Origin: an uncultured Anaeromassilibacillus sp.
GTDB lineage: Bacteria; Bacillota; Clostridia; Oscillospirales; Acutalibacteraceae
Reading direction: 5' to 3'
Length of the DNA: 64,000 bases
Assembly: GCA_902472225.1 (NCBI GenBank)
Contig: CABRNB010000001.1
Coordinates: 29,315 to 93,314 of the forward strand
Shown here: positions 1,653-28,604 of the stretch, in pieces
Numbering within the stretch: position 1 is the stretch's first letter
How the letters are laid out: the number at the start of each line of letters is the position of its first letter
The notes under the pieces: generated by a model
Told to the model about the DNA's origin: nothing
Database searches by the model: none
Seen by the model: only the letters and a program-made list of their open reading frames with translations
Position numbers and translations under genes: made by a program

Positions 1653-1814
1653 AGCTTTTCGCTTTGTATTGTGAGGTGCGTTCTTCCGATCCGGAGCGCA
1701 CTCCAAGCCTTGTCAATCCTGTACGCCTATTGTATAATGAAAGGACAGTCTCCCGGTGCCCGGCTGCGGCTTGGGCCGTGTGGGGAAGCGCCGCATAGGA
1801 AAGGTTGTGAAACA

Positions 1815-3101
1815 GTGAGCAATATTTTACTGAAGAACGTCAAGGTCTATGATCCCGCCTCCAAGCGGGACGGAGCCGTCGCCGATATCCTTTTGGAGGA
1901 GGGCGTGATCCGCGCTGTCGGGCAGCGGATTGAGATGCGCGACTCGGAGGTCATCGACGGTCAGGGCCGCCTGTGCGCCGCCCCCGGACTGGTGGACATG
2001 CACGTCCACCTGCGCGATCCCGGTTTTACCGCCAAGGAGGACATTCTCACCGGCTGCCGTGCCGCTGCCGCGGGCGGTGTGACGAGTCTTTTGTGCATGC
2101 CGAATACAAAGCCCGCCGTTGATACGCCGGAGACAGTCCGCTATATTCTGGAGAAAGCGGAGCATGCCGATGCGCGTGTTTATGTGGCCGCCGCCATTAC
2201 GAAGGGGCTCGGCGACGCGGCAGAGCTTTGTGATCTCGAAGCGCTGCGGGCCGCGGGCGCCTCTGCTTTCAGCAACGACGGCCGTCCTGTGGTCGATTCC
2301 CGCAAGATGGCTGAGACGCTCAAAACGGCTGCCCGTCTCGGCGTGCCGGTCGTCTCCCACTGTGAGGATCTTTTTCTCTCGGCGGGCGGCTTGATGAACG
2401 AGGGAGCCGTCAGCAGGGAGCTCGGGGTTCCGGGGGTTCCGGCGGCAGCCGAGGACTGCGGCACTGCCCGTGAGATTGCGCTGGCCGCTGCTTACGGCGT
2501 CCCGGTGCACATTTGCCACGTCAGTACCAAAACAAGTGTGGCCATGATCCGTGACGCGCGCCGCCGCGGCGTGCAGGTGACCGGCGAGACGGCCCCGCAT
2601 TATTTCGCTCTCACGGACGAGGAACTGCGCGGCCGCGACGCGGACAAGCGGATGAGCCCGCCGCTCCGTACCGAGGAAGATCGCCTCACGGTGATTGAGG
2701 CGCTGCGTGACGGTACGCTGCAAGCCATCGCGACCGATCATGCGCCGCATACCGTCCAGGAAAAGGCCGACTTTGCGAAGGCCCCCAACGGCAGCATCGG
2801 GATGGAGACGTCGCTGGCCGCGGGCATCACGTATCTTGTGAAGCCGGGTCTGCTCACGCTTTCGGAGCTGATCCGCCTGATGAGTACATCCCCGGCCCGG
2901 CTGCTGCATCTGCACGCCGGAACGCTCGCCGAGGGAGCGCCTGCCGACGTCGTTGTTTTCGACCCGGACGAGGTCTGGACGGTGGATCCGAACGCCCTGC
3001 ACGGCAAAAGCCGCAACGCTGTCTTTAAGGGCCGGGAGCTTACGGGCCGCGTGAAGGCGACTGTTTGCCGCGGCCGCTTTGTCTGGCGCGAGAGTGTGTA
3101 A
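1815..3101 (+). CDS. pyrC: dihydroorotase
   Basis: VDMHVHLRDPGFTAKEDILTGCRAAAAGGVT..., metal-binding His/Asp pattern of the amidohydrolase family, DHAPHT motif. GTG start after GGAAAGG; the upstream part of the listed ORF (1671) looks noncoding. Confidence 0.85.
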   Translation: MSNILLKNVKVYDPASKRDGAVADILLEEGVIRAVGQRIEMRDSEVIDGQGRLCAAPGLVDMHVHLRDPGFTAKEDILTGCRAAAAGGVTSLLCMPNTKPAVDTPETVRYILEKAEHADARVYVAAAITKGLGDAAELCDLEALRAAGASAFSNDGRPVVDSRKMAETLKTAARLGVPVVSHCEDLFLSAGGLMNEGAVSRELGVPGVPAAAEDCGTAREIALAAAYGVPVHICHVSTKTSVAMIRDARRRGVQVTGETAPHYFALTDEELRGRDADKRMSPPLRTEEDRLTVIEALRDGTLQAIATDHAPHTVQEKADFAKAPNGSIGMETSLAAGITYLVKPGLLTLSELIRLMSTSPARLLHLHAGTLAEGAPADVVVFDPDEVWTVDPNALHGKSRNAVFKGRELTGRVKATVCRGRFVWRESV

Positions 3102-3205: not shown

Positions 3206-4156
3206 ATGTCTCTTGACAAGATGATCGAAAAGATTGCCGCCCTGCAGAACCCCACGGTTGCGGGTCTCGATCCAAAGCTCGACTATATTCCGCAGTACCT
3301 CAGAGAAGAGGCTTATGCCAGGCACGGCCGGACGCTCGAGGGCGCCGCGGCGGCGATCTTCGCCTACAACAAGGGCCTGATCGACGCCCTGTGCGGCATT
3401 GTGCCTGCTGTCAAGCCGCAGGCTGCTTACTACGAGATGTACGGATGGCAGGGTGTTCGTACCCTGTATGAGACGATCCGCTATGCGCACGAGAAGGGCA
3501 TGTACGTGATTCTCGACGGCAAGCGCAACGACATTGGCGCGACGATGGAATCCTACGCCGCGGCCTGGCTTGGTTTGACGGCGGTGGAAAACGAGCTTGC
3601 CGAGCCGTTCGGCGCGGACAGCCTGACGGTGAACGGTTATCTCGGCAGCGACGGCATCAATCCGCTGCTCAAGGTTTGCGGCGAGCAGGGACGCGGCATC
3701 TTTGTCCTTGTCAAGACCTCCAATCCGTCTTCCGGCGAGCTGCAGGATCAGAAGCTGGAGAACGGTGAGACGATTTACCGCACGATGGGCCGTTTCTGCG
3801 AGAATTGGGGCAAGTCTCTTCCCGGCAAGTATGGCTATTCCGGGGTCGGCGCAGTAGTCGGCGCAACCTATCCGGCACAGCTCGGCGAGCTGCGTGCGGC
3901 CATGCCCTCGACCTTCTTCCTCGTGCCCGGTTACGGTGCACAGGGAGGCGGCGCGAAGGACGTTGCTCCCGGCTTTGACAAAAATGGTCTCGGAGCGATT
4001 GTGAACGCCTCGCGTTCCATTCTCTGTGCGTGGAAAAAGACGAACGCCGCGCCCGAGGATTACGCGAAGGCCGCCGCCGCGGAGGCTGTCCGCATGCGCG
4101 ACGATATCATGAGCGAGGTGGGCGAAATCCGCCTGCCGGTGGGAGGCGCGCTGTGA
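3206..4156 (+). CDS. pyrF: orotidine-5'-phosphate decarboxylase, long (type 2) form
   Basis: 315 aa, N-terminal LDPKLDYIPQY..., DGKRNDIGATM motif. Sits in the pyr gene context. Confidence 0.8.
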   Translation: MSLDKMIEKIAALQNPTVAGLDPKLDYIPQYLREEAYARHGRTLEGAAAAIFAYNKGLIDALCGIVPAVKPQAAYYEMYGWQGVRTLYETIRYAHEKGMYVILDGKRNDIGATMESYAAAWLGLTAVENELAEPFGADSLTVNGYLGSDGINPLLKVCGEQGRGIFVLVKTSNPSSGELQDQKLENGETIYRTMGRFCENWGKSLPGKYGYSGVGAVVGATYPAQLGELRAAMPSTFFLVPGYGAQGGGAKDVAPGFDKNGLGAIVNASRSILCAWKKTNAAPEDYAKAAAAEAVRMRDDIMSEVGEIRLPVGGAL

Positions 4157-4911
4157 AGCAGTATGATGTGCGGCAGTGCTGCGTGACAGACTTTACACAG
4201 CTTACGGCGGACATTTACAGCGCCTGGGTCGATGCGGGAGAGCTGGCCCGTATGGCGCGGCCCGGCCAGTTCGCGCAGATCTATGTTCCCGGCAAGACGC
4301 TGCGCCGCCCGATCTCGATCTGCGACGCGGAGGGCGGCAAACTGCGCTTTGTCTTCCAGATCCGCGGGGAAGGGACGGCCGTTCTTTCTCAAACCCGTGT
4401 GGGAGATTCCTGGGATATTCTTGCTCCGCTCGGACATGGCTTTGAACTCGGTAATACGGCGCGGAAGGCGTGCTTTGTCGGCGGCGGTATCGGCGTGCCT
4501 CCGCTTCTTGCGGCCGCGAAGTCCTTCGGAGCGAACGCTGTGGTTGTGACGGGTTTCCGCAGCAAGAGCGCCGTTATTTTACAGGATGACTTTACGAAGA
4601 AGGGCAACCGCGTCATTCTCGCTACGGACGATGGTTCCGCGGGACATCACGGCCTGGTGACCGAATGCCTGCCTGATGACTGCGAGGTCCTTTTTGCCTG
4701 CGGCCCGACCCCGATGCTCCGTGCCCTGACCGCCGAGGCCGAAAAGCGCGGCATCGAGTGCCAGATTTCGCTTGAGCAGCGGATGGCCTGCGGTATCGGT
4801 GCGTGCCTCGGCTGTGCCGTGAAGCTCAAAACGGAGGACGGCGGCTGGCGGCACGGTCATGTGTGCAAGGACGGTCCTGTTTTTGATGCGCGGATCGTCG
4901 CGTTTGACTGA
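4153..4911 (+). CDS. pyrK: dihydroorotate dehydrogenase electron-transfer subunit (FAD/2Fe-2S)
   Basis: GTG start overlapping the pyrF stop (GTGA). C-terminal CGIGACLGCAV 2Fe-2S cysteine motif. The listed ORF start at 4030 overlaps pyrF and is not the real start. Confidence 0.8.
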   Translation: MKQYDVRQCCVTDFTQLTADIYSAWVDAGELARMARPGQFAQIYVPGKTLRRPISICDAEGGKLRFVFQIRGEGTAVLSQTRVGDSWDILAPLGHGFELGNTARKACFVGGGIGVPPLLAAAKSFGANAVVVTGFRSKSAVILQDDFTKKGNRVILATDDGSAGHHGLVTECLPDDCEVLFACGPTPMLRALTAEAEKRGIECQISLEQRMACGIGACLGCAVKLKTEDGGWRHGHVCKDGPVFDARIVAFD

Positions 4912-4925
4912 GAGGAGGAGCGGAA

Positions 4926-5837
4926 ATGGCGGATTTAAAAGTAACGGTTGCCGGCGTTGAGCTGGCCAATCCCCTGATCGCGGCCTCCGGGACGTTTGGA
5001 TTTGGCCGCGAATACGCGGAATTTTATCCTCTGTCCACGCTCGGCGGCATTTCCTGTAAGGGCATCACGCTTCAGGAGCGCCCGGGCAACCCGCCTCCGC
5101 GCATTGCGGAGACGCCTTCCGGCATGCTCAACGCCGTCGGCCTGCAGAACCCCGGCGTCGATCATTTCATCGAGAAGGATCTGCCGTGGCTGCGGCAGCA
5201 GGGCACGGCTGTGATCGCGAATATCGCGGGCAACACGCCGGAGGATTACTGCGCGATGGCGGAGAAGCTTTCGGATTCCGACGTCGATATGATTGAGATG
5301 AACATTTCCTGCCCGAACGTCAAGCAGGGCGGCGTCCAGTTCGGTACCTCCTGCGAGGGCGTCGGTTCCATTACGGCGGCCGTGCGTAAACACTGTAAGA
5401 AGCCGCTGATGGTCAAGCTTTCCCCGAACGTTTCCGATATCGGCGAGATCGCCGCGGCGGCGGAGGCGGCAGGCGCGGATGCGATCTCGCTGATTAACAC
5501 GCTTACGGGCATGCGCATTGATATTCGCACGCGCCGCCCGATCATCCGCAACAACACCGGCGGCCTGAGCGGCCCGGCTGTTTTCCCGGTTGCCGTGCGC
5601 ATGGTGTGGCAGGCGTCCCAGCGGGTGAAGATCCCGGTCGTCGGCCTCGGCGGCATCGCGACCTGGCAGGATGCGGTGGAGATGCTGCTTGCCGGCGCGA
5701 CGGCTCTGCAGATCGGCACCGTTCTGTTTACCGATCCGTACGCGCCGGTCAAGATTCTCGACGGCCTGAACCGCTTCCTCGACGAGGAGGGGCTTTCCTC
5801 CGTCACGGAGCTGACCGGCGGAATCCGGCCCTGGTGA
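4926..5837 (+). CDS. pyrD: dihydroorotate dehydrogenase, class 1B catalytic subunit
   Basis: MADLKVTVAGVELANPLIAASGTFGFG..., NISCPN active-site region, 303 aa. Confidence 0.9.
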   Translation: MADLKVTVAGVELANPLIAASGTFGFGREYAEFYPLSTLGGISCKGITLQERPGNPPPRIAETPSGMLNAVGLQNPGVDHFIEKDLPWLRQQGTAVIANIAGNTPEDYCAMAEKLSDSDVDMIEMNISCPNVKQGGVQFGTSCEGVGSITAAVRKHCKKPLMVKLSPNVSDIGEIAAAAEAAGADAISLINTLTGMRIDIRTRRPIIRNNTGGLSGPAVFPVAVRMVWQASQRVKIPVVGLGGIATWQDAVEMLLAGATALQIGTVLFTDPYAPVKILDGLNRFLDEEGLSSVTELTGGIRPW

Positions 5838-5857
5838 GCGAAGGAGGCCGTACCGTT

Positions 5858-7615
5858 TTGGATTATCACTTTTATCTTCCCGTCCGGCTGCTCTGCGGAC
5901 GGGACGCGGTGCGCCGCGAGTCGGCGCGTTTTGCCGCTCTGGGGGCGCGATGCCTGCTTGTGACAGGCCGTGCCGCCGCCAGAAAAAGCGGCGCTCTCGC
6001 CGACGTGACGGCTGCTCTCGACTCTCAGGGGATCGCCTGGCGCGTGTTTGACGAGATTGGAGCTAACCCGCTCCTCCAAGACTGTGAGCGCGCCGCACAG
6101 GCGTGCGCCGGCTTTGGTGCGGATTTTGTCGTGGGGATCGGCGGAGGTTCGCCGATGGATGCGGCGAAGGCAGTAGCCGTGCTCGCCGCGAACCCCGGAA
6201 TGAGCGGCGCTTCGCTTTACTCCTCCGCCCCGCGCAAGCGCGCTCTGCCGATCGTCCTTGTGGGGACGACAAGCGGGACGGGCAGCGAGGTCAGCGCCGT
6301 TTCCGTGCTTACGGACGAATCGGGCCGCAAACGTTCGATCAAGGGCGACGATCTCTATGCGGCTTTTGCCTTCGGCGATCCGAAATACACCTTCACGATG
6401 AGCCGTGCGGAGACGATCTCCACCGGTCTAGACGCTTTCTGCCACGCGATGGAGGGCTATCTTTCGCCGCACTGTGACCGGATTTCCGCGTCGCTCGCAG
6501 AGGGGTGCCTGCCCTCGCTGTGGCGTGCGCTTTTAGCTCTGCACGAGGGGGAGCCGCTTACTGAGGCGATGCATGAATCGCTCTATGAGGATTCGCTCAC
6601 GGCCGGTCTGGTGCTCAATACCCTCGGAACTGCCTATCCGCACCCGCTCGGCTATGTGCTGACGGAGCGCTTTGGGATTCCGCATGGGCGGGCCTGCGCC
6701 GTTTTTGCCCCGTCGCTGCTCTATCTTGCGCTTGACCGCGGCTGTACGCATGCTCAGCGCCTGCTCGACCTCCTCGGCGTTCCGCTTCAGCGTTTCTCCG
6801 AGGTGTTTTCCGAGCTTGCCGACTGCGCCTCCATCCGAATGACAGATGAGGAGATTGACGCGCTTCGCAGCCGCTTGACCGGCGTTAAAAACTATGCGAA
6901 TGTTCCCGGAGGCTTTGACGAAGAGCAGGCATTGACACTGCTGCGCCGTCTTTTCGGCAGACAAACGCGGATTCTTCTCGCGCGCCACGGCGAGTCCGTC
7001 GGCAACGACATGGGGATCTTTCAGGGCCACATTGACTGCGATGTGAGTGAGAACGGAAAAAAACAGCTGGATCTGCTCAGCATCCGTCTGCGCAACGTTC
7101 CGCTTGACGCGATTGCGACGAGTCCGCTGCTGCGCGCTCGCCGCACGGCGGAGGGAATCAACCGCTTCCATCATCTTCCGATTGAAACATACGACGATCT
7201 CATCGAGATTGATGGCGGCGACTACAACGGGACGCTTTGGAGCGAACTGCCGGTTCGTTTCCCGGAGCAGAATGATAAGTGGTATCACGATCCGGCTAAC
7301 TTCGAAGCGCCGCACGGCGACACCATGCGCGAGGTTTATGAGCGGATCTGGAGAGGGCTGCTCGCCGTGGTGCGGGATCACCGCGGACAGACGGTCTGCG
7401 TTGTCTCGCATGGCAGCGCGATTCGCAACGCAATCTGCCGGATCCTCTATGGAACGATCGACCGGCTTGGCGATACGCCATGGTCGGACAACACAGGCTT
7501 TTCGACGATCGATTTTGCGGACGACGACACGCCACGCATCGTAAAGCTCAACGATGCGTCGCATCTTACGCCTGAGACGTCGTCGATGGCTAAACAGGAC
7601 TGGTGGGACGCATGA
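5858..7615 (+). CDS. Fusion protein: N-terminal iron-containing alcohol dehydrogenase-family domain (about 375 aa) plus C-terminal histidine phosphatase (phosphoglycerate-mutase-like) domain (about 200 aa)
   Basis: Fe-ADH signature GGGSPMDAAKAVA and a Gly-rich NAD fold. C-terminal RILLARHGESVGN (RHGE catalytic motif) and a later SHGSAIR motif, in one continuous frame. TTG 5858 preceded by AAGGAGG (5841-5847). The long upstream extension to 5606 overlaps pyrD. Confidence 0.7.
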   Translation: MDYHFYLPVRLLCGRDAVRRESARFAALGARCLLVTGRAAARKSGALADVTAALDSQGIAWRVFDEIGANPLLQDCERAAQACAGFGADFVVGIGGGSPMDAAKAVAVLAANPGMSGASLYSSAPRKRALPIVLVGTTSGTGSEVSAVSVLTDESGRKRSIKGDDLYAAFAFGDPKYTFTMSRAETISTGLDAFCHAMEGYLSPHCDRISASLAEGCLPSLWRALLALHEGEPLTEAMHESLYEDSLTAGLVLNTLGTAYPHPLGYVLTERFGIPHGRACAVFAPSLLYLALDRGCTHAQRLLDLLGVPLQRFSEVFSELADCASIRMTDEEIDALRSRLTGVKNYANVPGGFDEEQALTLLRRLFGRQTRILLARHGESVGNDMGIFQGHIDCDVSENGKKQLDLLSIRLRNVPLDAIATSPLLRARRTAEGINRFHHLPIETYDDLIEIDGGDYNGTLWSELPVRFPEQNDKWYHDPANFEAPHGDTMREVYERIWRGLLAVVRDHRGQTVCVVSHGSAIRNAICRILYGTIDRLGDTPWSDNTGFSTIDFADDDTPRIVKLNDASHLTPETSSMAKQDWWDA

Positions 7616-8043
7616 AAATACTGGCAGTCGATCTTGGCAAGGCCCGCACCGGTCTTGCCGTCTGCGACGAAGGGGAAATCCTTGCGAGCCCCGTCGCCGT
7701 CATCACACAGTATAACCGTGAGAAGCTCGCGCAGGAGGTGGCTGCAAAGGCCCGCGAGCTTGCTGTCGGCGAGCTTGTCGTCGGTTTGCCGCGGAATATG
7801 GACGGCAGCGAAGGTGAGAGCGCGCAGGGTGCGCGGGAGTTTGCCGCTGTGCTCGGGGAGCTGACAGGTTTGCCGGTCGTCCTGCGCGACGAGCGCCTGA
7901 CCACGGTGACGGCGCACGGCTATCTCAACGACACGAACACGCGCGGCAAAAAGAGAAAGGCGGTTGTGGACGCGGTGGCTGCTGTCGTGATTCTGGAAGA
8001 ATATCTTTCCTTCCGCCGCCGGCAGCGCGCGAGGGAGAGCTGA
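7612..8043 (+). CDS. ruvX: Holliday-junction resolvase-like protein RuvX/YqgF
   Basis: MKILAVDLGKARTGLAVCDE... RNase-H-like YqgF family. ATG overlaps the stop of the upstream gene (ATGA). Confidence 0.8.
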   Translation: MKILAVDLGKARTGLAVCDEGEILASPVAVITQYNREKLAQEVAAKARELAVGELVVGLPRNMDGSEGESAQGAREFAAVLGELTGLPVVLRDERLTTVTAHGYLNDTNTRGKKRKAVVDAVAAVVILEEYLSFRRRQRARES

Positions 8044-8206: not shown

Positions 8207-9226
8207 ATGACTATGGCAACCGTTTTACTGGGAAGAACAGGCATTGAAGTGGAAAAAAACGGGTTCGGCGCTCTGCCGATTCAGCGTATCGCGCTTGACG
8301 CCGCCGCTTCCCTGCTGCAAAAAGCCTACGAAGGCGGAATCCGCTATTTCGATACAGCCCGCAGCTATACTGACAGCGAGGAAAAGATTGGCGCGGCCTT
8401 CAGGAACGGACTGCGCCAAAAGCTGTACATTGCGACAAAAACGCCGTCTCAGACGGCGGAGGGGTTCTGGAAGGATCTCGAGACGAGCCTGCGTCTGATG
8501 CGCACGGACTATATTGATGTGTATCAGTTTCACAATCCCTCTTTCTGCCCGAAGCCGGGAGACGGCACCGGCCTTTACGAGGCGATGCTCGAGGCAAAAC
8601 GGCAGGGGAAAATCCGGTTCATCGGTCTGACGAATCACCGCCTGCCCGTTGCACGCGAGGCGGTTGAGTCCGGCCTCTACGACGTGCTGCAGTTCCCGTT
8701 CAGCTATCTCGCGGACGCGAAGGATGTGGAGCTTGTGCACTTGTGCGCGGAGAAGAACGTCGGTTTTGTGGCGATGAAGGCGCTCTCAGGCGGCCTTATC
8801 ACGAACTCCGCCGCAGCGTACGCCGCCCTTGCGCAGTATGAGAATGTGCTGCCGATTTGGGGCGTGCAGCGCGAGAGCGAGCTCAGCGAGTTCCTCTCCT
8901 ATATCGAAAATCCCCCGGTCCTGACGCCGGAGCTTGCCGCTGTGATTGAACGCGACAGAAAGGAGCTCGCAGGAGACTTCTGCCGCGGCTGCGGTTATTG
9001 CCTGCCCTGTCCCGCCGGGATCGATATCCCCACCGCGGCGCGCATGGCTCTGCTTCTTCGCCGTTCCCCGACGGAGAATCTCCTGTCGGAGGAGTCGCAG
9101 GAAAAGATGAAGCGGGTGGAAAATTGCATTCACTGCAACCACTGTGCCAATCATTGCCCTTACGGCCTTGATACGCCCCGTCTTCTCGCGGCAAACTATG
9201 AGGATTACAAAACCTTCCTTCGATAA
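8207..9226 (+). CDS. aldo/keto reductase fused to a C-terminal 4Fe-4S ferredoxin-type domain
   Basis: AKR N-terminus (GALPIQR..YEGGIRYFDTARSY). C-terminal CRGCGYCLPCP and CIHCNHCANHCP cysteine clusters. Confidence 0.75.
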   Translation: MTMATVLLGRTGIEVEKNGFGALPIQRIALDAAASLLQKAYEGGIRYFDTARSYTDSEEKIGAAFRNGLRQKLYIATKTPSQTAEGFWKDLETSLRLMRTDYIDVYQFHNPSFCPKPGDGTGLYEAMLEAKRQGKIRFIGLTNHRLPVAREAVESGLYDVLQFPFSYLADAKDVELVHLCAEKNVGFVAMKALSGGLITNSAAAYAALAQYENVLPIWGVQRESELSEFLSYIENPPVLTPELAAVIERDRKELAGDFCRGCGYCLPCPAGIDIPTAARMALLLRRSPTENLLSEESQEKMKRVENCIHCNHCANHCPYGLDTPRLLAANYEDYKTFLR

Positions 9227-9557: not shown

Positions 9558-10670
9558 TTATGCTCTGTACTTGTCTACAACCGCCTTCATATCGTCCCAC
9601 TGCTGTTCCATGTCAGAGACGAGCTTCAACTGGGTACGGCAGCGGTCGAGATTCTGGCCCTCGCGGTGCGTGCGGAAGTAGTGATCGCCCTCAAGATAGT
9701 CGGTCAGGAAGCGGATGCCGCACTCAAGCGTCATGAGCTTCGCGCCCCAGGGCAGATAATCAAGCTCCGCGTCGGTCAGCGCGCCGGCCGCGCCCTCGAG
9801 GTAGCCCCTCGTGTAGACGTCAAAGAGGGAGATGTCGAAGTTGACCTTCGAGAGATCGCGCTCATCCTCCGCGCTGTGGTTTGCGCCGAAACGGATCGAG
9901 TCGCCGAAATCGTTGATCGAAAGCCCCGGCATGACGGTGTCGAGATCAATGACGCAAACCCCCTTGCCGGTGGCGCGATCGATCAGGACATTGTTGAGCT
10001 TCGTATCGTTGTGGGTGACGCGCAGGGGGAGCTTCCCGTCGCGCAGGGCCTGCAGAGCGACGGAGCAGTCAGCCTCGCGGGCGGCGACAAAATCGAGCTC
10101 GGGCTGTACGTCCTTTACGCGGCCCATGGCGTCGGCGGCCACCGCCGCTTTGAGCTTTCTGAGGCGATCCTCCGTGTCATGGAAATGGGGAATCGTCTCA
10201 TACAGCGTGTCGGCGGGATAGTCCTTGAGCATGCGCTGGAAGTTGCCGAAGGCAAAGGCGGAAGCCTCAAAAAGTTCGGGCGTTTCAGCGGCCTGCAGGC
10301 AGACAGTATCCTCAATGAAGGGGTACACACGCCATGCGCCGCCTTCCGCGTCCGAGTAGAAGCTCTTGCCGTCCTTCGTCTGAATGACCTGCATCGTCTC
10401 GCGGGCCGGGTCGCCGCCTGCAGCGGCAATTTCCTTGCTCAGGAAGGAAGTCACGCCCACGATGTTGGCCATGAGCTGATCCGGATGATGAAACGCGCCG
10501 GAGCTGATCCGCTGCAGGATAAAGCGGCGGCAGGGATCCTCGCCGGGCTGGGTATGGACGCAGAAGGTGTCGTTGATGTGGCCCATGCCGTACCGCACGG
10601 CGCCGACAACTTCTCCGCCGAAATCAAACGCGCTGAGCGCGTCCTGGAGATATTGTTCCGCCTGTCCCAT
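9558..10670 (-). CDS. anomeric sugar kinase of the aminoglycoside-phosphotransferase fold (N-acetylhexosamine / N-acetylmuramate 1-kinase, NahK/AmgK-like)
   Basis: 370 aa. APH/ChoK-fold motifs HNDTKLNNVLID (catalytic HxDxxxxN) and DLD (metal binding). RBS GGGAGGA. Lies directly downstream of a sugar-1-P nucleotidyltransferase. Confidence 0.65.
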   Translation of the reverse strand: MGQAEQYLQDALSAFDFGGEVVGAVRYGMGHINDTFCVHTQPGEDPCRRFILQRISSGAFHHPDQLMANIVGVTSFLSKEIAAAGGDPARETMQVIQTKDGKSFYSDAEGGAWRVYPFIEDTVCLQAAETPELFEASAFAFGNFQRMLKDYPADTLYETIPHFHDTEDRLRKLKAAVAADAMGRVKDVQPELDFVAAREADCSVALQALRDGKLPLRVTHNDTKLNNVLIDRATGKGVCVIDLDTVMPGLSINDFGDSIRFGANHSAEDERDLSKVNFDISLFDVYTRGYLEGAAGALTDAELDYLPWGAKLMTLECGIRFLTDYLEGDHYFRTHREGQNLDRCRTQLKLVSDMEQQWDDMKAVVDKYRA

Positions 10671-10676
10671 TTCTTT

Positions 10677-11603
10677 TCAATCCTCCCAAAGATTGTCGGG
10701 GTACAGCCCGCTCGCGGTCATATCGGCGATCGCCTTGACGACGACCGGTTTATCGTCGCGGTACGTTACGCCGTACCATTTGTCCGTGCTGCGCAGCACC
10801 TTGACGCGCGCTTTATTTTCTTCGAGCAGCTGCGTCACGACACTCGGCAGGAAATATTCGCCCTTGAGCGGATTTTCGACAACCGCCTTATCCAGGAAAG
10901 CGGGGAAGCGCTTTTCCGCCTCGTCGATAAAGCTGCGGGTGAAGCCCCACAGGTTCATCGAAACAATGGTGCTGCCGGGAAGCTCCGTCCAGGTTTTGCC
11001 GTCGTCCTCGGTGAAGCGGGCGTTTTCGCCGTCCTTCTCAATGCGGGTGCGCTCGGTGACGCGTACGAGATAGCCGTTTTCGTCCTCCTCGCACACACCG
11101 CGGGCGACGTGGCCGTTCTCCGTGACCGTGTTGCCCAGAAGATAGGCAACCATCGCAAACTCATAGCAATCCGGCTGGTCGGGGTGCTCCTCCAAGTACT
11201 GATAGATGGTGCGGAAAGCATCCGGGCCGTAATAGTCGTCGGCGTTGATGACGGCGAACGGACCGTTGACGACCTTGCGGGCGGCCAGGATGGCATGCGC
11301 CGTGCCCCAGGGCTTTACGCGGCCTTCGGGGATGGAATAGCCTGCCGGAAGGTCAGCGAGCTCCTGATAGGCGTACTCGACATGGATGATCTTCGAGAGT
11401 CTGTCGCCGATGGCGCTCTTGAAGGTTTCCTCGATCTCATGCTTGATGACGAAGACGACTGTCTCGAATCCGGCGCGGCGCGCATCGTAAATCGAGTAGT
11501 CAATGATGAGCTGGTTGTGGTTTCCCACAGGGTCAATCTGCTTCAGTCCTCCGTAGCGGCTTCCCATGCCCGCGGCCATCACAACAAGAACCGGTTTGCT
11601 CAT
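10677..11603 (-). CDS. sugar-1-phosphate nucleotidyltransferase (MurU/UDP-sugar pyrophosphorylase-like)
   Basis: N-terminal VLVVMAAGMGSRYGG-LKQ, the GxGxR nucleotide-binding signature of the NTP_transferase family. Start at MSKP with RBS GGAGAGGA. 6-nt gap to the kinase gene. Confidence 0.65.
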   Translation of the reverse strand: MSKPVLVVMAAGMGSRYGGLKQIDPVGNHNQLIIDYSIYDARRAGFETVVFVIKHEIEETFKSAIGDRLSKIIHVEYAYQELADLPAGYSIPEGRVKPWGTAHAILAARKVVNGPFAVINADDYYGPDAFRTIYQYLEEHPDQPDCYEFAMVAYLLGNTVTENGHVARGVCEEDENGYLVRVTERTRIEKDGENARFTEDDGKTWTELPGSTIVSMNLWGFTRSFIDEAEKRFPAFLDKAVVENPLKGEYFLPSVVTQLLEENKARVKVLRSTDKWYGVTYRDDKPVVVKAIADMTASGLYPDNLWED

Positions 11604-11718
11604 GAAAACCATCCTCTCCAATCAAAATGTTGAACTTGACTCCCCGGAACGCTTTGCCGCGTTCCCTTCTTTCTGCTTTCATTGTAGCCCGAATGCGCCG
11701 GAAAAGAAATAGACAATC

Positions 11719-25515: not shown

Positions 25516-25717
25516 GTTTTCTCAAAGTACCCCGCCTGGCCGTAATGTGTGAGAATAACCTGCCTACGGAAAGCAGGTGGGTGCCCGCCCAACGGTTTCA
25601 CGCTCCCTTCTTCCGGCAAAGCCGGGAGGTCTGCAATCTGCCGCCGGAGCTAAGCTCCCGATTCAAAAGTGTAGGGTTATCATACGCAAGTCCGCGAACC
25701 AGGCAGGAAAAGTCTTT

Positions 25718-26023
25718 TTATTCCTCTTCGGATTCCTCTGCCTCAAACATCTCGTCGAAGCGCTTTTCAAACTCAGCGGCAAGGCGATCGGCGAGCTCGT
25801 CGTCCTCCACCTCGGCCAGCTGCTGCTCGCCGTCCTCTTCGAAGGCCTGGAAAATATAGTAGGAGCCGTCGGCTTCTACCTGATCCTGCGGATCTTCAAA
25901 GGTGGGGAGCAGGGCGTAGAAGCAGCCCTCGTCGTTTTCTATGATATCCAGGATCTCAAACTCATGCTCCTGGCCGTCCTCGTCCACAAGTGTGAGCAGA
26001 TCCGGGCTGAAATCTTCGTTCAT
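25718..26023 (-). CDS. DUF1292-family small acidic protein
   Basis: MNEDFSPDLLTLVDEDGQEHEFEILD... with acidic C-tail. RBS AAAGGAG. The listed ORF start at 26161 is an upstream extension without an RBS. Confidence 0.65.
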   Translation of the reverse strand: MNEDFSPDLLTLVDEDGQEHEFEILDIIENDEGCFYALLPTFEDPQDQVEADGSYYIFQAFEEDGEQQLAEVEDDELADRLAAEFEKRFDEMFEAEESEEE

Positions 26024-26161
26024 ACCAAAGCATACTCCTTTCTGAAGAACTCTTTCGTATGTATTGTACATGCGATTTGCTCCGAAGTCAACCGAAAAAT
26101 CAATGAAAGAAAAAATAAACAGTTTTTTAAAAGTTTGTTTATATTTTTTCATCAAAAACAC

Positions 26162-26190
26162 TTGACAATACCGCGCCGGTGTAGTATAGT
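26162..26190 (+). promoter_or_regulatory. near-consensus sigma-70 promoter reading into the AT-rich noncoding island
   Basis: TTGACA (26162-26167), a 17-nt spacer, TATAGT (26185-26190), then TATAAT three nt later. Confidence 0.6.
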
Positions 26191-26196
26191 ATAATC

Positions 26197-27456
26197 ACAA
26201 CAAAGGAAGAGATACAAAGAAAGCAGACAAAATATCCGCTGAAAGCAAAAGAAGGAATTTTGCATTAACAAAGTTTTTTCAGCAAGGGAAGCGGATAAGA
26301 AGAATGTGGAAGGAATGTCTGCGAATTGTACCACTCACTTTTGTGCAGATTTAGACAGAAAGGGGTGCAGTCCAATGGACACCAAACCGCAGCAGTATCC
26401 GGCAGACGTTGTTCTGTTGGACGGCGTCTGCTGAGATAAAGAAAACGTGTTCTCTACAAGAGCGGTAAAGCTGATGAATACCAGAGGAATGAGAGCAAAG
26501 GCATAGAGGTATGTATTGCGGATCATTCGGAAAAGGGAAAGGCAGCGAAACCGTAAATATCGTGTAGACCAAAAGCTTTGAGCTGAATTGATGGTTAGCT
26601 CGGATTTTATTGAACCATTTGTACAGAAAGGAACGGGAAGTAAATCCAGTGCAGTTTCTGAGCATGGTCTCAATGAATCGAAGGTTTGCAGAATAGCGTG
26701 ATCTATTTTCAAAAACCCGATTGTAGCTTTTGGAAAAGCTTGAAACATTTTCGTTTCACGAAACAAAGAGTGCGGTAATTCTGGAAAATAGCTAAGCACG
26801 CAGTTGAAATTCTGAAAACTTTTTCTTAGGTGAAGCCCAATGTACAGCATTTGACCCTTCTGAAAAGAAGGAAACGGATATTTCCCTTTCGCGTAGACTT
26901 TTAGAAGTTACAGCAACATTCTTTGGAGATTAAGAATGACTGGAAACAAAATGAATCCCATGCAGTGATAAAGTGGAAGCTCCGGAAAAGGAGTGGATTC
27001 CCCTCAGCGGTGATTTTTAAGTGTTACGGCGACGTTCCGTTTATGGAATGACCGGAAACAAATAAAATTCCATGCAGTGATTCTATAGAAGCTTCGAAGG
27101 AGAAGCGTTGTTCCAAGCGGTGAATTTTAGTAGTTACGGCAACGGTTTTCATCAGAAGACAGACCGGAAACAAACGATTTCCAAGCAGTGAACCTATAGA
27201 GCTTCAAAGAAGAAGCGTTGTTCCCAAGCGGTGAATTTTAGCAGCTCCGGCGACGGTTTGCGGATGCAGGCTGACCGGAAGCACAAGACTCCCAGCAGTG
27301 AACAAAGAAGCTTCGAAGGAGAAGCAGTTTATCACCAGCAGAGATTTATGTAGTTACAGCAACATTTCTCCGGTTTGAGAGAATGACTGTAAACCCTTAA
27401 TCCCATGCACAGATAAAAGTATTACGAGAGCCCCGGCCGGTACCGCCGGGGCTCTC
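26197..27456 (+). ncRNA. candidate long noncoding RNA (about 1.26 kb) containing about 4.5 degenerate tandem repeats of about 110 nt; no credible ORF on either strand
   Basis: Strong promoter upstream and a GC-rich 12-bp hairpin at the 3' end. GC about 42 % versus about 62 % in flanks. Only junk ORFs in the six-frame track. Conserved submotifs in every repeat unit. Confidence 0.45.
26895..27420 (+). repeat. tandem direct repeats, about 110-bp period, roughly 4.5 copies, about 65-75 % identical
   Basis: Recurring blocks TTTTAG-(T/C)AGTTACGGCAACG, GACCGGAAACAAA, CATGCAGTGA, GAAGCTTCGAAGGAGAAGCGTTGTTCC, AAGCGGTGA. GTTAC(G/A)GC recurs at 26907, 27023, 27134, 27245 and 27354. Confidence 0.8.
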
Positions 27457-27460
27457 TTGA
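27426..27460. terminator. GC-rich hairpin closing the noncoding island (possibly bidirectional)
   Basis: GAGAGCCCCGGC-cggtacc-GCCGGGGCTCTC. U-rich on the minus-strand side, TTGATCT on the plus side. A second hairpin GTCCGGA...TCCGGAC follows immediately. Confidence 0.55.
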
Positions 27461-27680
27461 TCTGTCCGGACCACGGATCCGGACGGTGGAAACGCATTTG
27501 CCTTTTCTCCTGCTCTTTGGCGGAGCCCCGTTTTGCAGTTGGTTTCCTGTGAAAAGGAAATGTGAATTAATTGTAAACTTTTGGCTGTTGAGTGAGAAAA
27601 TCACTTTTTTCCTGTTCTGTTTTTGCTATACTGAAAACCACAAGCTCCCTTTTTGGGGCAGCAGAAAGGCGGAATTTTAG

Positions 27681-28604
27681 ATGGATCATAAAATTTGGGA
27701 TGTTATCATCGTCGGAGGCGGTCCCGGCGGCTACACGGCGGCTTTGTACTGCGGCCGTGCGGCGCTTTCCGTTCTTGTCCTTGAGAAAATGGCGCCTGGC
27801 GGTCAGATGGGGACGACGGATCAGATTGACAATTATCCCGGCTTCCCGGAGGGAATTAACGGATTTGATCTTGCCATGCAGATGCAGCAGAGCGCTGAAA
27901 GATTTGGTGCGCAGACGCGCCTTGAGGACGTCGTCCGTCTCTCTCTGGAGGGAGAGATCAAAACGGTCGTCACTTCCTCCGGCGAATACAAGGCGCGCAC
28001 CGTGGTTCTGGCTACCGGGGCGGCTCCCCGTGAGCTGGGGCTGCCTCGGGAACGCGAGCTGCGCGGCCGCGGCGTTTCTTATTGCGCGACGTGCGACGGC
28101 ATGTTTTATCGCGGCAAAGAGGTCGTGGTGGTAGGCGGAGGCAACACAGCGGCCGCCGATGCGCTGTATCTCTCAAAGCTCTGCGGAAAGGTGACGATTG
28201 TGCACCGCCGCGATACGCTGCGTGCTTCGAAAGCATATCTCAAGCCTCTTCAGGAGTGCGGCAACGTGGAAATCCTTTGGGACAGCCTGCCGGACGAGAT
28301 TCTCGGAGAGAACGCTGTTTCCGGCTTGCGGGTGAAAAATAAAAAGACAGGCGAGACGCAGGATGTGCCTTGCGCCGGTATTTTCGTTGCAATCGGAAAC
28401 GAGCCGAATACGGCTCTCTTCGCGGACAGTGTTGCTCTCGACGGCGGCTATGTCGCTGCGGATGAAACGACCCGTACCAATCTTCCGGGCGTTTTTGCGG
28501 TGGGCGATGTTCGCCGCAAGCCGCTGCGCCAGGTGGTTACCGCCGTTGCGGACGGCGCGATGGCTTCCCATTTCATTGAGGAATACCTCTCCGAGGTTCA
28601 TTGA
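27681..28604 (+). CDS. trxB: thioredoxin-disulfide reductase
   Basis: GGGPGG FAD motif, redox-active CATC, GGGNTA NADPH motif. 307 aa. Confidence 0.9.
   Translation: MDHKIWDVIIVGGGPGGYTAALYCGRAALSVLVLEKMAPGGQMGTTDQIDNYPGFPEGINGFDLAMQMQQSAERFGAQTRLEDVVRLSLEGEIKTVVTSSGEYKARTVVLATGAAPRELGLPRERELRGRGVSYCATCDGMFYRGKEVVVVGGGNTAAADALYLSKLCGKVTIVHRRDTLRASKAYLKPLQECGNVEILWDSLPDEILGENAVSGLRVKNKKTGETQDVPCAGIFVAIGNEPNTALFADSVALDGGYVAADETTRTNLPGVFAVGDVRRKPLRQVVTAVADGAMASHFIEEYLSEVH

Follow-up and report, generated by a model that had tools for sequence, protein, structure and literature searches.

A single reading frame that joins an iron-dependent alcohol dehydrogenase (ADH) to a histidine phosphatase (HP) was found between pyrD and ruvX in a 64,000-nucleotide stretch of DNA from an uncultured Anaeromassilibacillus sp. 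(NCBI GenBank assembly GCA_902472225.1, contig CABRNB010000001.1, positions 29,315 to 93,314 of the forward strand; "the window" below means this whole stretch). The fusion is genuine and recurs in independent assemblies and species, and the architecture appears to be undescribed and confined to "Candidatus Caccousia" and its close relatives. We favour, at a probability of roughly 60%, a young, lineage-restricted and opportunistic fusion of operon neighbours, by which two independent activities are expressed 1:1 from the pyr-ruvX operon. We infer that these activities need not be successive steps of a single pathway and that the fusion became fixed since it was harmless or mildly convenient.

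All coordinates are window positions and refer to the + strand unless marked (-). The fused coding sequence (CDS) comprises 585 codons and a TGA, with the following parts.

5840-5847, +: strong Shine-Dalgarno (SD) sequence GAAGGAGG, read from the sequence, 10 nucleotides 5' of the TTG start
5858-7615, +: fused ADH-phosphatase CDS, 585 amino acids, TTG start; 98% identical to protein P0001 and alignable over its full length to P0001-P0007
5879-6382, +: Fe-ADH N-terminal domain (Rossmann-like, NAD(P)-binding), residues 8-175; PF00465, 150.6 bits, cut-off 31.3
5966-5968, +: Gly37, aligned with a Gly in TM0920 of Thermotoga maritima (VTGR here, VTGK there)
6140-6172, +: GGGSPMDAAKA, residues 95-105, motif read in the translation
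6413-6958, +: Fe-ADH C-terminal helical domain, residues 186-367; PF25137 and alignment to TM0920
6431-6433, 6443-6445, 6641-6643 and 6683-6685, +: metal ligands D192, H196, H262 and H276, respectively, by alignment to TM0920
6953-6973, +: fusion junction ...LFG-RQT-RIL..., from comparison with the split genes of loci L005, L008 and L025 and from alignment of the fused proteins
6971-7555, +: His_Phos_1 domain, residues 372-566; PF00300, 165.1 bits, cut-off 21.7
6983-6994, +: RHGE, residues 376-379, motif read in the translation
6983-6988 (R376, H377) and 7409-7411 (H518), +: catalytic residues, together with N383, R426 and E450; invariant in all eight fused proteins (8/8)

An earlier note on this DNA had described one 585-residue frame holding both the GGGSPMDAAKA and RHGE motifs, with neither a stop nor an internal ribosome-binding site between the domains, and the open reading frame (ORF) and its translation bear this out. 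No internal stop is present, and no credible internal start or SD was seen near the junction, where the only in-frame starts between residues 330 and 385 are TTG 340 and TTG 359, neither with a good SD. The CDS begins with TTG at 5858, 20 nucleotides past the pyrD stop (5837). An in-frame GTG at 5834, overlapping that stop, was considered as an alternative start and rejected: TTG 5858 is preceded by a well-spaced SD, and GTG 5834 is unlikely because the N-termini of all fused homologues fall no more than one residue from the TTG 5858 position. At the other end, the TGA overlaps the ruvX ATG (gcATGAaa; ATGA at 7612-7615). The translational coupling to both neighbours proposed in the earlier note thus holds for ruvX but not for pyrD, from which the fusion is separated by a 20-nucleotide spacer with its own SD.

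The N-terminal half belongs to the group III Fe-ADHs, as indicated by a Pfam match over both sub-domains, the GGGS motif, the Asp-His-His-His ligand set and the two-domain fold. A Pfam domain search, which had been suggested as a check, placed Fe-ADH, ADH_Fe_C and His_Phos_1 all far over their gathering scores; the ADH_Fe_C (PF25137) match itself covered residues 186-308 with 61.3 bits against a cut-off of 27. GGGS (G95-S98) and the ligands D192, H196, H262 and H276 were invariant across 37 family members. In the AlphaFold model, the 585-residue chain had a mean predicted local distance difference test (pLDDT) score of 94.5 and a predicted template modelling (pTM) score of 0.81. With Foldseek the ADH half superimposed on 1o2d/1vhd with target template modelling scores of 0.92-0.94, a root-mean-square deviation of 2.1-2.2 Å and 34-35% identity, and the top 50 PDB matches to the fusion model were all ADH-only.

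The structure in question, TM0920 (1O2D/1VHD), is the best solved relative of the ADH half (E = 4e-60, residues 3-367 aligned), and the ADH domain ends at approximately residue 367, where the TM0920 crystal structure ends in the alignment. The two proteins share GGGS, four iron ligands with equal spacing and a Gly at the position of Gly37; TM0920 differs in being a stand-alone protein of 359 residues, whereas the fusion carries a C-terminal phosphatase, and their identity is approximately 35%. In NAD-specific enzymes, as in FucO, an Asp occupies the position of Gly37. Because Gly37 stands where these enzymes have Asp, a preference for NADP(H) seems likely, and the ADH half is a predicted metal-dependent oxidoreductase, probably linked to NADP(H). 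TM0920 is a group III iron-containing NADP-bound ADH annotated as a putative 1,3-propanediol dehydrogenase; it was crystallised with NADP+, and its metal ligands are Asp189, His193, His256 and His270 (PMC12821551). The TM0920 papers give no physiological substrate.

Assignment of the ADH half to a specific NCBIfam equivalog (FucO lactaldehyde reductase, PsrA, SarD, ErcA, sulfoacetaldehyde reductase, EutG and others) was rejected, all scores being under cut-off. The five top ADH equivalogs and 4-hydroxybutyrate dehydrogenase scored 116.9-138.4 bits against cut-offs of 423.7-700, and the EutG model 105.3 bits against 556. Neither half of the fusion reached any functionally defined NCBIfam equivalog.

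The C-terminal half falls within branch 1 of the histidine phosphatase superfamily by its PF00300 score and catalytic core, and with its Arg-His...Arg...Glu...His set it is a predicted phosphomonoesterase acting via a phospho-histidine intermediate. Its best solved relative is PspA/iPSP1 of Hydrogenobacter thermophilus (4IJ5), a phosphoserine phosphatase of the histidine-phosphatase type (E = 2e-29 over 200 residues), with which it shares the Arg-His/Arg/Glu/His catalytic set and the wider PhoE/CobC-like branch of His_Phos_1. PspA differs at His85 (EIDHG), which is aligned with Gly454 (EIDGG) of the fusion. His85 reportedly matters for the phosphoserine activity of PspA. The PspA model (NF045917) was the highest-scoring NCBIfam phosphatase model, and assignment to it was nevertheless rejected, as the score of 131.1 bits falls far short of the cut-off (350) and His85 of iPSP1 is not conserved. 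Assignments to the CobC alpha-ribazole phosphatases (TIGR03162; 120.9 bits, cut-off 162.9) and to dPGM or GpmB (scores under the curated cut-offs) were rejected likewise. Pathway reconstruction in gut microbiomes found approximately 450 Firmicutes genomes without a recognised phosphoserine phosphatase, and PspA-like His_Phos_1 proteins have been proposed to fill that role in some of them (PMC9026213). The absence of a His85 equivalent argues for caution in extending this proposal to the phosphatase between pyrD and ruvX.

Aligned with one another, the eight fused proteins gave the junction consensus ...RRLFG-R(Q/K)T-R(I/L/V)(L/I/Y)L(V/I/A)RH..., and the linker is effectively nil, with the ADH domain reaching to about residue 367 and the first phosphatase beta-strand starting at residue 370-371. 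Among 5.8 billion protein clusters searched, seven aligned over their full length (582-586 residues, 64-98% identity); they contain 187, 9, 28, 158, 1, 98 and 21 member sequences (about 500) from ENA and Logan assemblies. Contigs with a 68%-identical fused member had the identical order pyrC-pyrF-pyrK-pyrD-fusion-ruvX-aldo-keto reductase, and the context of pyr genes, fusion, ruvX and aldo-keto reductase was common to L001, L002 and L006. The nearest genomes in the GTDB species set were "Ca. Caccousia avicola" (78% over the ADH part) and "Ca. C. avistercoris" (64%), and the fused frame was continuous in both; Caccousia is an Oscillospiraceae genus described from chicken gut metagenomes. Nei-Gojobori estimates for four fused genes gave ratios of nonsynonymous to synonymous divergence (dN/dS) of 0.13-0.34, similar in both halves, with dS at approximately 1-1.7 and thus saturated. 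Both halves are under purifying selection.

The spread of the architecture, which the earlier note had proposed to check, proved narrow. When 1.84 billion representatives at 50% identity were scored with a profile built from the fused proteins, eight in number, P0001 alone among the best 150 matches, down to 224 bits, covered both domains; the other 149 were ADH-only or phosphatase-only, and no second fused cluster was present among these 150, although remoter fusions of Fe-ADH with His_Phos_1, arisen independently, may score under that limit. Beyond the fusions, adjacency of ADH and phosphatase genes was confined to three sister-clade loci. A literature search found no description of a fusion of an iron-containing ADH with a histidine phosphatase, and no source names the fused proteins; together with the single cluster covering both domains in the best 150 profile matches, this agrees with the earlier impression that the architecture is not that of a characterised enzyme.

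Other long proteins occurred among the same 150 matches, each in one representative: ADH with an aminotransferase fragment, an ADH fragment with PspC, NUDIX with ADH, and HP with GNAT (P0368). These one-off fusions (P0353, P0382, P0297 and P0368) are probably a mixture of assembly chimeras and rare real events and provide a baseline for the frequency of single-contig fusions. P0135, of 378 residues, has His_Phos_1 and RuvX in one frame with both Pfam domains, directly after pyrD (L087, 1845-2981); it is known from one Logan contig and so may be an error. Taken with the RNase H-His_Phos_1 proteins of the Rv2228c type (P0224, P0229), it suggests that this branch of phosphatases is repeatedly associated with nucleases of the RNase H fold. 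In L088 (1-7534), a 5'-truncated phosphatase half (P0121, 177 residues, 69% identical) lies directly after a block resembling a conjugative element, with two ArdA-like genes, DUF4314, DUF3849 and a D12 methyltransferase; in that strain the fusion gene may have received the insertion of a mobile element.

The origin of the fusion was examined through gene order, for which the following neighbours in the window are relevant.

~1779-3101, +: pyrC-like dihydroorotase (Pfam, ORF list)
3206-4156, +: pyrF orotidine monophosphate decarboxylase (Pfam, ORF list)
~4150-4911, +: pyrK electron-transfer subunit (Pfam, ORF list)
4926-5837, +: pyrD dihydroorotate dehydrogenase (Pfam, ORF list), adjoining the fusion upstream
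7612-8043, +: ruvX, a YqgF-family nuclease (Pfam), with its ATG overlapping the fusion TGA
8207-9226, +: aldo-keto reductase with a C-terminal 4Fe-4S dicluster domain, the next gene after ruvX

The pyrC-like gene, pyrF, pyrK and pyrD belong to the same transcription unit as the fusion, and no convincing terminator was found between pyrD, the fusion and ruvX. The order of pyr genes upstream of pyrD was the same in L001, L005, L086 and L089, and ruvX followed the phosphatase in every related locus looked at. The position of the aldo-keto reductase 3' of ruvX is kept in the fused-clade loci L001, L002 and L006; split and ancestral loci have DegV genes there instead.

The arrangement of ADH and phosphatase was compared in 85 loci, together with loci of phosphatase orthologues, as follows.

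L001, L002, L006, L007: ADH and phosphatase fused
L005, L008, L025: pyrD-ADH-phosphatase-ruvX as separate genes, ADH of 371 residues and 55-58% identical
more than 70 other loci: ADH without a histidine phosphatase within ±8 kb
L086 (Caproiciproducens faecalis): pyrD-HP-ruvX without ADH
L089, L090 (Ruminococcaceae metagenome-assembled genome): pyrD-HP-ruvX without ADH
L091, L092: pyrD-HP-ruvX without ADH
L093: pyrD-HP-ruvX without ADH, the upstream pyr genes differing (carA-carB-pyrK-pyrD)

Stand-alone ADH orthologues are very numerous (~366-375 residues, 42-58% identity) in Clostridia, Acutalibacteraceae and Oscillospiraceae. No His_Phos_1 gene was found within ±8 kb of the more than 70 other ADH orthologues with phmmer and a family hidden Markov model built from 112 phosphatase homologues. 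Their usual neighbours were apbE, a NusG_II-like gene and rnfC/D/G, divergently transcribed, with a yaaO-like decarboxylase downstream in a few loci, and no pathway could be inferred from these neighbours. All loci of stand-alone phosphatase orthologues that were looked at had the phosphatase (~216-230 residues, 37-54% identity) between pyrD and ruvX and lacked an ADH, and none of five HP locus types contained an ADH. The phosphatase stop overlapped the ruvX start in L089-L092, and gaps of 2 and 40 nucleotides were present in L086 and L093, respectively. The position between pyrD and ruvX, which the earlier note had found unexpected for either family, is therefore surprising for the ADH half but is the rule for this phosphatase subfamily.

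Two of the three split loci (L008 and L025) had an ADH stop overlapping the HP start (GTGA), and in all three the HP carried an N-terminal extension of approximately 20-30 residues ahead of its KTKILL strand. The fused genes are without the ADH tail, the stop, the HP start and the HP N-terminal extension; approximately 90 nucleotides are lost relative to L008, and the frame is corrected. Because HP orthologues hold the pyrD-ruvX site without ADH, the order of events shown by this comparison of gene order and sequence is pyrD-HP-ruvX, then ADH insertion, then fusion. The ancestral arrangement was pyrD-HP-ruvX with a resident histidine phosphatase of about 220 residues, and a TM0920-type Fe-ADH gene was inserted between pyrD and the phosphatase in one Oscillospiraceae sub-branch. 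On the "Ca. Caccousia" branch, a deletion of approximately 90 nucleotides, not a multiple of three, then took the last ~10 ADH codons, the stop, the HP start and the extension of ~20-30 codons, so that both frames became one at ...RRLFG|R(Q/K)T|RILLVRH....

Four considerations led us to favour an opportunistic fusion. The ADH and phosphatase families have independent genomic distributions; the phosphatase has its stable partners in pyrD and ruvX rather than in the ADH; the phosphatase gene was also seen fused to RuvX, where metabolic coupling is implausible; and Rv2228c/MSMEG_4305 of the Actinomycetales gives a published precedent for drift. In the latter proteins, RNase HI is joined to a CobC-like His_Phos_1 domain, so that, as here, a single lineage has His_Phos_1 attached to an unrelated enzyme. 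According to the MSMEG_4305 study, the two domains of that protein work separately from each other in vivo, and drift is the probable reason why their fusion became fixed (PMC7466739). Proteins of the Rv2228c architecture match the HP domain of the fusion (P0224, P0229; NF005567, 101.6 bits); they differ in that the partner is a nuclease rather than an ADH and in having a variable linker where the fusion has none. The HP fusions to RuvX (one contig) and to GNAT (one representative) suggest that opportunistic fusions arise in this tightly packed operon.

Several points weigh against an opportunistic origin. Synonymous sites have diverged to saturation (dS ~1-1.7), yet the fusion has persisted, with both halves equally constrained. 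The whole-chain pTM of 0.81 is above expectation for freely hinged halves and hints at a fixed inter-domain interface in the model. In the sister clade the ADH gene lies directly upstream of the phosphatase, with translational coupling between the two in L008 and L025, and selection for co-expression could account for this. Reductase-phosphatase fusions that act consecutively also exist, an example being MtlD (PMC9168451).

These points lead to the main alternative, a dedicated two-step enzyme that performs a redox step on a phosphorylated carbonyl or alcohol and removes the phosphate, in either order, so that, as with MtlD, a neutral alcohol or polyol would be formed in one direction only. 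Besides the sister-clade adjacency, the intact active sites of both halves under equal purifying selection are consistent with it, as is the lack of a linker together with the whole-chain pTM. Two basic residues of the ADH half, K158 and R339, are invariant family-wide and would be compatible with an anionic substrate. MtlD provides the functional precedent: with a dehydrogenase and a phosphatase on one polypeptide, it is a model for reduction followed by dephosphorylation, and consecutive catalysis from fructose-6-phosphate through mannitol-1-phosphate to mannitol has been demonstrated (PMC9168451). Its domains come from unrelated families, however (a HAD phosphatase and a mannitol-1-phosphate dehydrogenase), and its phosphatase is N-terminal, the opposite order to that of the fusion. 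Further arguments against a two-step enzyme are that the ADH-phosphatase pairing is limited to one small clade, that a histidine phosphatase is absent from the vicinity of the more than 70 other ADH orthologues, that HP orthologues hold their site between pyrD and ruvX without any ADH, that HP also fuses with the functionally unrelated RuvX, and that no equivalog model for an enzyme with a phospho-substrate was reached. We regard a dedicated two-step enzyme as unlikely, if worth keeping in view. The earlier note had deduced a two-step conversion from the covalent link; this deduction lost its footing with the separate histories of the two genes, the ADH normally being located elsewhere without a phosphatase and the pairing being confined to a small clade.

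We also considered whether one half could be a regulatory or pseudo-enzyme module, either as an ADH-fold regulator like ErcA or as a phosphatase fold that senses a ligand and modulates its partner. ErcA, an "alcohol dehydrogenase-like regulatory protein", was among the top NCBIfam ADH matches at 136 bits, but its cut-off is 550 and the score is no better than those of catalytic ADHs. The third residue of the phosphatase RHG motif varies among fused orthologues (G/A/S/C), which would fit such a role. This variation is no sign of decay, because the third position is Ala in active PspA (RHAES) and Cys in stand-alone orthologues (RHCE). With the four metal ligands, GGGS and the full phosphatase catalytic set all invariant, a non-catalytic half is quite improbable. 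Finally, an assembly or sequencing artefact, in which a frameshift or lost stop merged two genes, has a negligible chance of being correct: chimeric-looking single-contig proteins do occur in such metagenome collections (ADH with an aminotransferase fragment, ADH with PspC, NUDIX with ADH), but the 585-residue frame and its junction recur in seven clusters down to 64% identity, from different assemblers and sources and in two named species, and the ~90 nucleotides missing at the junction relative to the split genes hence do not amount to a one-base error.

Apart from the fusion and its operon, the following features were recorded in the window.

9558-11621, (-): convergent pair of an APH-family kinase (369 residues) and an NTP_transferase (313 residues)
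25525-25712, (-): 6S RNA (Rfam RF00013, 66 bits, full-length match), directly downstream of the DUF1292-like ORF
25718-26161, (-): DUF1292-like ORF
27681-28604: thioredoxin-reductase-like gene

We take the kinase/NTP_transferase pair to resemble the salvage pairs of an anomeric sugar kinase and a uridylyltransferase. Between the DUF1292-like and thioredoxin-reductase-like genes, a segment of ~1.5 kb (~26160-27680) is low in G+C (0.30-0.51 vs ~0.60 elsewhere) and has no convincing ORF; Rfam yielded no match to it at E<=1, and the compared loci contained nothing similar. Gene-less gaps of ~1-1.4 kb beside DUF1292 were also present in L005 and L086.

On present evidence, the main value of the fusion is as a clean, datable case in which a compact operon with overlapping stops and starts has yielded a multidomain protein, by insertion and then a deletion of approximately 90 nucleotides. 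It cautions against taking "Rosetta-stone" fusions as pathway links. If the halves do act in sequence, the protein would be a new type of bifunctional reductase-phosphatase and would give a handle on the substrate of the very widespread Clostridial ADH family of the TM0920 type. A bolder proposal, which we hold to be doubtful, is that the fusion is a functional reduce-and-dephosphorylate module of new composition (Fe-ADH with His_Phos_1), converting a phosphorylated carbonyl irreversibly to a free alcohol or polyol in Oscillospiraceae of the chicken gut and other guts; alternatively or additionally, the pyrD-phosphatase-ruvX unit may point to an as yet unrecognised phosphatase reaction linked with the metabolism of pyrimidine nucleotides or with RNA processing of the RuvX type. 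The latter proposal agrees with the repeated pairing of His_Phos_1 and RNase-H-fold nucleases, as in the Rv2228c type and in the HP-RuvX protein P0135. The more general lead is the conserved pyrD-histidine phosphatase-ruvX unit itself, whose HP orthologues range from 54% down to 37% identity.

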